Shown here in pieces: positions 32,780 through 32,887 of a DNA stretch of 64,000 bases. The notes below the pieces were generated by a model that was not told the origin of the DNA, ran no database searches, and worked only from the letters and a program-made list of their open reading frames with translations. Position 1 is the first letter of the stretch. The number at the start of each line of letters is the position of its first letter. Location: the NCBI GenBank assembly GCA_964402565.1, contig CAYOCJ010000002.1:79392-143391 (forward strand), read 5' to 3'. The position numbers and the translations under genes are program-made. The stretch is from an uncultured Gammaproteobacteria bacterium. Lineage in GTDB: Bacteria > Patescibacteriota > Patescibacteriia > UBA1558 > 2-01-FULL-52-15.

Positions 32780-32789
32780 GGAAGCATTA

Positions 32790-32855
32790 GGGTCGTTAGC
32801 TCAGCCCCGACGTTGCAGTCGGGGAGCCGACCGCAAGCGTCGGCTTTGGTAGACG
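32790..32855 (+). other. Truncated tRNA-Lys copy (first 15 nt plus next 8 nt of the D-arm) interrupted by a 40-nt double-hairpin insertion; not a functional tRNA.
   Basis: GGGTCGTTAGCTCAG [CCCCGACgttgcagtCGGGG AGCCGACcgcaagcGTCGGCT] TTGGTAGA... The flanks are identical to the 5' 23 nt of the tRNA-Lys at 32888. Confidence 0.6.
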
Positions 32856-32887
32856 TAAATTGAAAATAGAGTTGTCATTGATTTTAT

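Follow-up and report, generated by a model that had tools for sequence, protein, structure and literature searches.

The stretch analysed here, called the window, comprises 64,000 nucleotides (nt; 64 kb) of contig CAYOCJ010000002.1 from a patescibacterial genome assembly (GCA_964402565.1). Its tRNA-Arg(TCG) and tRNA-Lys(CTT) genes lie in tandem on the plus strand and are separated by a spacer of 108 nt, which holds a truncated copy, or stub, of the tRNA-Lys gene interrupted by a double-hairpin insert. The insert is designated H, and the comparison loci that were fetched carry labels of the form L0xx. The tRNA-Arg gene (32704-32779) is intact (ARAGORN; Rfam tRNA, 73.9 bits). It is preceded by a promoter-like site on the plus strand at 32647-32675, TTGAAA-17-TACAGT with a TG, which is sigma-70-like and, in a consensus scan, the sole site available to the Arg-stub-Lys transcription unit. 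A similar TTGAAA...TATAGT is found 5' of tRNA-Arg in the relative L047.

The spacer begins with 10 native nucleotides, GGAAGCATTA (32780-32789), which, by blastn against the relative L049, connect tRNA-Arg with the original start of tRNA-Lys. They are followed by fragment A, GGGTCGTTAGCTCAG (32790-32804), which corresponds to nt 1-15 of tRNA-Lys(CTT) and contains the 5' strand of the acceptor, nt 8-9, the 5' strand of the D-stem, A14 and G15. It is identical to 32888-32902 in 15 of 15 positions. H occupies 32805-32845. Fragment B, TTGGTAGA (32846-32853), is read directly as nt 16-23, the remainder of the D-loop and two nt of the 3' strand of the D-stem, and the homology to the tRNA stops there. 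The last 34 nt of the spacer, filler S (32854-32887), are A+T-rich and have no homologue in the window, in its relatives or in any fetched locus. The intact, functional copy of tRNA-Lys(CTT) follows directly (32888-32963; ARAGORN; Rfam tRNA, 71.9 bits). It is 100% identical to the gene of L047, and a bidirectional terminator is located 3' of it, at 33146-33159. The scan called no promoter-like or terminator-like site within 32780-32887, and therefore the stub and H are, judging by the sequence, most likely simply part of the Arg-Lys precursor transcript. H was also considered as an intrinsic terminator between the two tRNAs and rejected: the scan does not call it, and only three T follow it.

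H reads in full CCCCGAC-GTTGCA-GTCGGGG / A-GCCGAC-CGCAAGC-GTCGGC-T and is 41 nt long. Direct reading and RNA folding agree on two hairpins. The stem of hairpin 1 (32805-32824; CCCCGAC / G-T-TGC-A / GTCGGGG) is 7 bp long; the G that follows its 5' arm is unpaired, and a T-A pair closes the loop. Hairpin 2 (32825-32845; A-GCCGAC / C-GCAA-G / C / GTCGGC-T) is an inverted copy of the hairpin-1 module; its 7-bp stem includes an A-T pair, its loop is of the GNRA type and closed by a C-G pair, and one C is bulged. The predicted folding energy of the insert is -26.8 kcal/mol (z = -4.7), and none of 200 shuffled sequences was equally stable.

The sequence-only reading that drew attention to this spacer had described a duplication of the first 15 nt of tRNA-Lys(CTT), a 40-nt insert made of two hairpins, and 8 nt that continue the tRNA after the insert. 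The duplication, the two hairpins and the continuation are as described, whereas the insert measures 41 nt against the tRNA. The additional base is the final T; its pairing partner is the linker A, and the two positions covary in the family. By chance, 0.03 matches to the 15-mer of fragment A with up to two mismatches are expected in the window, and the repeat was also picked up by a repeat finder (family D4). Past nt 23 the stub is missing the completion of the D-stem, the anticodon arm, the T arm and the 3' acceptor strand. ARAGORN does not call it and no Rfam tRNA matches it, even at E <= 10; the tRNA scan suggested in the same reading thus called no functional, intron-containing tRNA, and the pseudo-tRNA proposed there is correct only insofar as the stub is a dead fragment, which is trivial. 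At the gathering score and at E <= 10, Rfam returned only the two tRNAs and noise, and H matches no Rfam family.

Syntenic relatives were reached through PilT homologues. A search of metagenomes through the neighbouring GAF protein found none, and exact-protein matches led only to contigs that stop at the tRNA region. The PilT of the window shares 83% identity with proteins named Candidatus Komeilibacteria, and its close matches, where named, are all from Patescibacteria. Two loci, L047 (GCA_964422585.1) and L049 (a JGI metagenome), encode PilT proteins 96% identical to that of the window. In both, tRNA-Lys(CTT) comes after tRNA-Arg(TCG), separated from it by 50 nt in L047 and by 8 nt in L049, and neither has a stub or H; R1, a covariance model used in the analysis of H, finds no match in either. 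H is also absent from the more distant Komeilibacteria loci L050-L052. In blastn, positions 32704-32804 of the window align with the tRNA-Arg, the 8-nt spacer and the first 15 nt of the intact tRNA-Lys of L049. Fragment A occupies the ancestral position of the gene start, placed relative to tRNA-Arg as in L049. Compared with L049, 98 nt have been added in the window past tRNA nt 15, namely H (41), nt 16-23 (8), the filler (34) and nt 1-15 (15). The suggestion of the sequence-only reading that a partial duplication has been invaded by a miniature palindromic element is supported by these H-free close relatives and by the existence of a repeat family. A comparison of the locus and a search for other copies of the hairpin pair, both proposed there, found the insert not conserved in the closest relatives and not unique, with at least 41 distinct copies in genomes and metagenomes of Patescibacteria.

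The family of double-hairpin elements

A pattern that fixed only the four stem arms (CCCCGAC..GTCGGGG..GCCGAC..GTCGGC) was used to scan 185,579 bacterial and archaeal species, each represented by one genome. The scan found 36 H loci, and every titled locus among them belongs to a metagenome-assembled genome (MAG) of Patescibacteria. The hosts are Saccharibacteria, Paceibacterota, Nomura-, Zambryski- and Kaiserbacteria, and Minisyncoccia, and several MAGs contain two or three copies. A second, D-loop-specific pattern added 8 further loci, from metagenomes. No H was found in 2.9 million viral contigs. The removal of duplicates left 41 distinct copies with usable flanks. A second H was not found in the 64-kb window by exact, 3-mismatch and generic (CCGAC..GTCGG) searches or by the covariance model.

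Each copy of H contains two inverted versions of one module, xCCGAC - closing pair - loop of 3-4 nt - bulged C - GTCGGx'. Of the base pairs in the structure, the search pattern did not constrain three, and each of these covaries. The linker base and the base after GTCGGC form AU 30 times, CG 8 times and GC 3 times, with one mismatch; the closing pair of loop 2 is CG (27), UA (11), AU (2) or UG (1), and that of loop 1 is UA (16), CG (15), AU (1) or GC (1). In these positions 99% of the cells are paired, against 24-44% with slid partners, and the covariation score was reached by none of 500 shuffles. The hairpin structure of H is kept by compensatory changes. Covariance model R1 found more variants with compensated stems, such as TCCGAC/GTCGGA, CACCGAC/GTCGGTG and CCCGAC/GTCGGG. 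Loop 2 is mostly GNRA. The bulged C before the 3' arm of hairpin 2 is present in 41 of 41 copies, and so is the unpaired G after the 5' arm of hairpin 1, which mirrors it. This symmetry therefore identifies H as two inverted copies of one module. When folded as DNA, either strand prefers a single long hairpin, and the covarying pairs fit only the double hairpin.

A nested case is found in L031 (5634-5720), where a variant double hairpin (CGCCGAC.. / AACCGAC..) lies within hairpin 1 of another copy, again at ...ACAG|T.... Two structural likenesses of H were considered and set aside. The analogy to integron attC sites (a G|TTRRRY core and extrahelical bases) was dropped, as reading of the sequence, with no formal test, gave no RYYYAAC/GTTRRRY pair, and the likeness of hairpin 2 to domain V of group II introns (AGC, a bulge and GNRA) is superficial, its stem being far too short.

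The H of the window is an ordinary member of a family which is confined to Patescibacteria, structurally constrained and lodged in core genes. No prior description of such an element in Patescibacteria was found in the full-text literature searched, which leaves subscription journals mostly outside, so that an earlier report is possible; a 2026 survey of tRNA introns in Patescibacteria does not mention hairpin inserts. The family appears to be undescribed and, among small palindromic mobile DNAs, to represent a new variant.

Target sites, host genes and tRNA stubs

The target of H is YAG|TTGR, and there is no target-site duplication. In the 16 tRNA contexts the native D-loop flanks are ...CTCAG | H | TTGG..., the exact sequence of the empty site without duplicated bases. 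In the 25 other contexts the flanks are C/T-A-G on one side and, after the paired base, T-T-G-A on the other. Since tRNA and non-tRNA flanks share a short asymmetric site, they represent a target preference and not the ends of the element. The D-loop-coding sequence CTCAG|TTGG of many tRNA genes is a perfect target of H.

The hosts of H are heavily expressed genes: tRNA genes, rRNA operons, and genes of ribosomal proteins and translation factors. Within genes or stable-RNA operons, H is in sense orientation in about 35 of 35 copies. The only two copies that run against the local gene direction are intergenic (L014 and L019), and their neighbours are opposite-strand genes. H is found in the leaders of rRNA operons (L003, L005 and L031), downstream of RNase P RNA (L033), and within 23S rRNA beside a group I intron (L036, L037 and L022). 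In these last three loci (L036 1251-1500, minus strand; L037 6-52; L022 1707-1753) H lies immediately 5' of the group I intron (Rfam Intron_gpI, 50 bits), and the junction sequence of H and intron in 23S rRNA recurs in a second genome.

The protein genes that carry H encode TrxB (L004 and L032, at the same site), SecA (L024), IF-2 (L038), S5 (L011, with similar-looking but unchecked copies in L018 and L023), S16 (twice in L026, and in L028 and L035), NusG (L015) and L7/L12 (L027). The coding copies, about 12 in number, are all 42 nt long and lie on the sense strand in phase 1, where they encode the peptide (A)PTxxVGxPTxSVG; the length of the non-coding copies varies between 39 and 43 nt. The uniform length and phase of the coding copies indicate that H is read through and not spliced out. 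In TrxB, the H insert coincides with an alignment gap against the solved AhpF/TrxB structures. In the rplL gene of L027 (oriented 3651-4091), the codons before H, MNQEQIIEA, repeat an N-terminal motif that is found about 9 codons past H (KKIIEEVEKMTVLEL), with a DNA match of 10 of 12 at +28. This may be a protein-gene counterpart of the tRNA stubs, with a duplicated 5' end; rpsE (L011 and L018) shows weaker hints of the same.

The arrangement at tRNA-Lys recurs at ten or more further tRNA loci: a stub that starts at tRNA +1, H after nt 15, tRNA bases to nt ~21-26, a filler, and the intact tRNA. The end-point of the stub falls at nt ~21-26 in L008, L009, L010, L012, L021, L039, L042, L043, L044 and L045, and the fillers at the other tRNA loci are 5-49 nt long and mutually unrelated. 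The layout occurs at tRNA-Val(GAC) in L008, at Val(CAC) in L009, L012, L044 and L010, at Thr(CGT) in L039 and L042, at Thr(GGT) in L043 and L045, at Pro(GGG) in L021 with two units, and, in degenerate form, at Arg(CCT) in L029, where a Phe(GAA) gene also carries a variant element at nt 11/12. Stub-H units are arranged in tandem in L010 and L021. The converse arrangement is found in L007 and L016: an intact tRNA is followed, within 2-3 nt, by nt 8-15, H and nt 16-76 of a second copy, which is without the 5' acceptor strand. No H-bearing tRNA copy is capable of forming a cloverleaf: the copies of L007 and L016 lack the 5' acceptor strand, and the others lack nt ~24-76. At the orthologous Val(CAC) and Thr(CGT) loci, where the filler is 5-15 nt long, a promoter-like TATGGT is located upstream of the stub, which therefore marks the original gene start. 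The stub of L042 differs from the adjacent tRNA at three acceptor positions and that of L008 at one.

Duplication of the upstream flank is pronounced in the tRNA contexts, where the mean best mismatch is 2.25 against 4.3 in the control, and nearly non-existent in the non-tRNA contexts (4.0 against 4.7). Its restriction essentially to tRNA contexts fits survivorship and not a duplication step of the insertion; an obligatory duplication of the flank upon insertion was rejected on the ground that non-tRNA copies show almost none. A simple tandem duplication as the origin of the stub was rejected for the window and for L021, where the filler is unrelated to the sequence 5' of the stub.

A stub without H was observed in L042, ~63 nt 5' of tRNA-Gln(CTG) (oriented 8581-8643). 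It consists of ~22 nt of the 5' end of tRNA-Gln joined to a 3' acceptor remnant and is a heavily deleted tandem pseudo-tRNA; decayed tRNA duplicates therefore exist independently of H.

The genes around H were examined by searching 101 neighbouring open reading frames (ORFs) against Pfam. The 25 best-represented of 70 families were listed, and what is said below of enzymes near H refers to these 25. The neighbouring ORFs belong to housekeeping families, and only GIY-YIG ORFs, at two loci (L013 and L043), stand out. These small nuclease ORFs (L043 240-621; L013, minus strand, downstream of the H at 344-383) lie between the 5' stub of tRNA-Thr and the intact tRNA. L043 has a second stub of a different allele, composed of nt 1-21, another hairpin and nt ~32-45; the GIY-YIG ORF follows it and runs into the intact tRNA-Thr(GGT). 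The ORF of L043 looks like another mobile gene that left a 5' stub and regenerated the tRNA.

Origin of the arrangement

The explanation that is favoured, and that is probably correct, is that H is a selfish, non-autonomous palindromic mobile element which inserts at YAG|TTGR, and that its hits in essential tRNA genes survive only when the 5' part of the gene is duplicated. In the window, H would have entered tRNA-Lys(CTT) between nt 15 and 16. At permissive sites, such as linkers and tails of proteins or leaders, it may persist as a bare insertion. In an essential tRNA gene it could persist only where the copy that was hit is redundant, and because the tRNA-Lys gene is essential, the surviving arrangement would be limited to such a redundant copy. 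The front of tRNA-Lys (nt 1-23) would now be present twice, in an upstream copy that carries H and is truncated after nt 23 and in a downstream copy that is complete. RNase P, in processing the 5' end of the intact tRNA-Lys, would set free the stub with H. H may be moved in trans by a structure-specific enzyme, for which the HUH/Y1 type of IS200/IS605-RAYT is a candidate. Hairpins with extrahelical bases, a short one-sided target, the lack of a duplication and the strand bias point to a single-strand transposition of the IS200/IS605-RAYT kind, which the features of H, by analogy, would resemble most.

Several observations weigh against this explanation. The copy number of H is low, with one copy in this 64-kb window and at most three exact-stem copies per MAG in the scan, and H has not been seen to transpose. 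Since the stems were fixed in the search patterns, part of the uniformity that the family seems to have is due to ascertainment. Within ~1.8 kb of 40 copies, the 25 families show no enrichment of a transposase, an integrase or a reverse transcriptase, and for this reason the mobilising enzyme is a conjecture. The limits of the stub are sharp (tRNA +1 and nt ~21-26), which survivorship after random tandem duplication does not predict, and filler S is not copied from the native upstream sequence. Four orthologous Val(CAC) loci have kept the stub and H although their flanks have diverged, and the stubs of L044 and L009 track the acceptor sequence of their own tRNA. This retention and tracking could reflect selection or gene conversion and not junk.

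The 98-nt block gained by the window (H, nt 16-23, the filler and nt 1-15) could alternatively be a miniature integrative unit or its remnant, although this is unlikely. Its entry would have been by recombination, site-specific or of the Campbell type, within the first 15 nt of the tRNA gene; H would have served as a recombinase-binding structure beside the crossover, and the block would have brought its own 5' part of the tRNA to regenerate the gene, as the attP of phages and of integrative and conjugative elements does for 3' parts. The 15-nt direct repeats that flank H, fragment B and filler S are consistent with such an entry, and so is the stub, which begins exactly at tRNA +1 and has a constant end, like an att identity block. 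The tandem arrays of L010 and L021 resemble accretion at att sites; a plain tandem duplication is made less likely by L021, whose filler is unlike the sequence 5' of the first stub; and the differences between stub and tRNA in L042 and L008 look as if the stub had been imported. L049 provides a mirror case, with an intact tRNA-Lys, ~190 nt inserted and a displaced 20-nt 3' end of the tRNA. However, no integrase or recombinase gene of the 25 families lies near the ~40 copies, the block is far too small for autonomy, the fillers share nothing, and bare H of 41-42 nt without flanking repeats is found in coding genes and rRNA leaders. Williams is said to have described in 2002 that integrases which target tRNA genes cross over in the anticodon loop, the T-loop or the 3' end, and not in the D-loop, and this, too, was weighed against such a unit. 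The att-like scar considered in the sequence-only reading is a minority reading, which has in its favour the direct repeats of nt 1-15 and the tandem arrays elsewhere; it agrees neither with the lack of an integrase nearby, among the 25 families, nor with the simple, repeat-free insertion of the same 41-42-nt element at other sites. The broader proposition that either H spreads via RNA and the stubs are retro-copies, or the block of stub, H, filler and 5' copy is a new ultra-small integrative unit that repairs the tRNA, is decidedly improbable.

Insertion of H into the exposed single-stranded loops of abundant RNAs, followed by reverse transcription back into the genome, is very unlikely. The targets would be nt 16-17 in the D-loop of tRNA, rRNA precursors and mRNAs of ribosomal proteins, and the stub would have arisen as cDNA, copied from the 5' portion of a tRNA that carried H. 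The sense orientation of H in genes and stable-RNA operons (~35/35), whose RNAs are among the most abundant, the start of the stub at the mature 5' end of the tRNA in at least 10 loci, and the position of H directly 5' of the group I intron in 23S rRNA (L036, L037 and L022) favour this route; moreover, the covarying structure is the fold preferred by RNA, whereas DNA prefers the single long hairpin. Nevertheless, the sense bias is equally expected if single-stranded DNA is targeted on a replication strand or on the non-template strand, the intergenic copies of L014 and L019 lie between opposite-strand genes, and orthologous loci have the stub at the original position of the gene, downstream of the original promoter, and not at a new site. 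There is no known way for a 41-nt RNA to insert itself, and no reverse transcriptase was seen near any copy among the 25 families. Still more doubtful is the possibility that the stub and H are a selected RNA element of the tRNA operon, acting as a structured leader in processing or stability or as a small RNA, which in one variant would be released by RNase P and 3' processing. This would account for the hairpins preserved by compensatory changes, the retention of stub and H in four Val(CAC) and two Thr(CGT) orthologous loci despite diverged flanks, the tendency of the stub to match its own tRNA, and the invariable placement on the transcribed strand within tRNA and rRNA transcription units. 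Yet the two closest relatives, whose tRNA-Lys genes are identical or nearly so, do not have the element; it occurs in frame in at least 7 different housekeeping proteins and at unrelated intergenic sites; it matches no Rfam family; and conservation of the hairpins is also expected of an element that is recognised for its movement. That the stub is a functional tRNA whose D-loop contains a non-canonical intron, or that it arose by chance or as an assembly artefact, is almost certainly wrong. Extra bases at D-loop position 15/16 are tolerated in some tRNAs, which counts for the intron, but no cloverleaf can be formed after TTGGTAGA, and the negative results of ARAGORN and of the Rfam tRNA search have already refuted it. 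Chance is excluded for the 15-mer repeat, the stub-H layout occurs in more than 10 independent assemblies, and independent Logan contigs, which skip 32734-33032, contain both junctions of the surrounding segment.

Neighbouring features and comparable elements

The segment that contains the promoter, tRNA-Arg and tRNA-Lys (window ~32658-33164) is inverted relative to the flanking genes in comparison with L047, L049 and L050-L052, in which the tRNAs are co-directional with PilT, GAF and a gene of 679 amino acids (aa). It is bounded by an ORF of 698 aa (30561-32657, minus strand) and the GAF gene (33165-34139). Both junctions of the segment are matched at 100% by the independent Logan contigs L001 and L002, which do not cover 32734-33032. 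The 698-aa ORF has no Pfam match, and its annotated ATG overlaps the promoter spacer of tRNA-Arg. As its homologue in L047 has 679 aa, the true start may be located further in.

A second structured element with GNRA-capped hairpins is found downstream of tRNA-Lys in the window (~33016-33125). It starts with the antisense T-arm-like sequence GGATTCGGACC, is 82% identical to the region after tRNA-Lys in L049, has no Rfam match, and is also present at L049 5970-6110 and at L050 6200-6240 and 6350-6400. In L049 it is followed by the displaced 20-nt 3' end of tRNA-Lys, and the arrangement there looks like a 3'-side insertion with regeneration of the gene. The tail motif of this element, GAGTCGAACGGGCACGAG, occurs on both sides of tRNA-Lys in L050. 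The Arg-Lys spacer of L050, a Komeilibacteria locus, contains two other hairpins (6120-6200), GGTCCAAT..ATTGGACC and GTTCTGC..GCAGAAC, each followed by TTCG, which suggests that further families of hairpin elements reside in the tRNA spacers of this group. Elsewhere in the window, 23S and 5S rRNA genes are located at 11830-14976 and 15226-15343, with tRNA-Ala(GGC) and tRNA-Leu(CAG) 1.5 kb upstream of them; there is no 16S rRNA gene in the 64 kb. The 23S match spans 3147 nt against a model of 2925 nt, so this gene probably carries insertions.

In behaviour, H is closest to the Rickettsia palindromic elements (RPEs), although the term RPE-like denotes here a behavioural class and no homology. 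Ogata and co-workers reportedly found in 2000 that RPEs within protein-coding genes are kept in frame and translated. RPEs and H have in common that they are short selfish palindromes of reduced genomes, inserted in frame, as H is in TrxB, SecA, IF-2, S5, S16, NusG and L7/L12, and that no associated transposase gene is known. H differs in its length of 41-42 nt, in the absence of any sequence similarity and in the host lineage; RPEs, which are selfish palindromic repeats of 100-150 bp in a reduced-genome lineage, both intergenic and in protein genes (PMC1779305), are not known for a D-loop target or for tRNA 5' stubs.

In form, H is closest to REP/REPIN dimers, including the CGTC class, and to the double-hairpin elements of mitochondria, with neither of which it shares sequence. 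REPs are imperfect palindromes of 20-40 nt, often arranged as inverted dimers, and the CGTC REPs have no dedicated transposase; REPs are not reported from Patescibacteria in this source (PMC3733652). Like REPs, REPINs and BIMEs, H is an inverted dimer of 20-21-nt modules with conserved stems, variable loops and no target duplication. CGTC is invariant in the 3' arms of H, where it is proximal to the loop; the tag of the REPs is described as lying at the terminus of the element (PMC3733652). Further differences are that H has no terminal GTAG, that it is low-copy and often intragenic whereas REPs are abundant and extragenic, and that no RAYT/Y1 transposase was seen within ~1.8 kb of its copies among the 25 families. 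With elements derived from IS200/IS605, H shares hairpin ends, a short specific site (YAG|TTGR), the lack of a duplication and the strand bias. The mitochondrial double-hairpin elements and repetitive hairpin-forming elements of Allomyces, other fungi and sponges are found in intergenic regions, in rRNA genes and occasionally in protein genes, and stay in the transcripts (PMC2800124 and the work that it cites). They resemble H in their length of tens of nt and in their two hairpins with conserved stems and variable loops; they are organellar and of unrelated sequence, and neither a defined YAG|TTGR target nor a recurrent tRNA 5'-stub architecture is reported for them.

The tRNA-targeting integrative elements and their derivatives that have no integrase, namely att scars and cis-mobilizable elements, share with the H loci a tRNA target, a duplicated flanking segment, a regenerated intact gene and tandem arrays (L010 and L021). 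At the H loci, however, it is the 5' end of the tRNA (nt 1-15 or 1-23) that is duplicated, with a breakpoint in the D-loop, the inserted DNA is only 57-98 nt long, and no integrase of the 25 families is nearby. The direct repeats in the window are of 15 nt and 8 nt. A classical miniature inverted-repeat transposable element was rejected: there are no duplicated target bases, no insertion sequence (IS) with matching ends occurs near the copies as far as the 25 families show, and the hairpins of H are internal palindromes, inverted copies of each other, and not terminal inverted repeats of the IS type.

The tRNA-like stubs derived from H can confuse annotation, tRNA counts and marker-gene alignments in Patescibacteria, and universal marker proteins are lengthened by 14 residues where they contain H. 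Through its conserved extrahelical bases and its GNRA loop, H offers a handle for finding the protein that recognises it, and the family is a compact system in which to ask how a 41-nt element without genes finds a 7-nt target. The repeated rescue of an essential, single-copy tRNA by regeneration of its 5' end is not described for REPs, RPEs or the mitochondrial hairpin elements. The genomes of Patescibacteria are among the smallest and most streamlined of bacteria, and H is nonetheless found in their most conserved genes.

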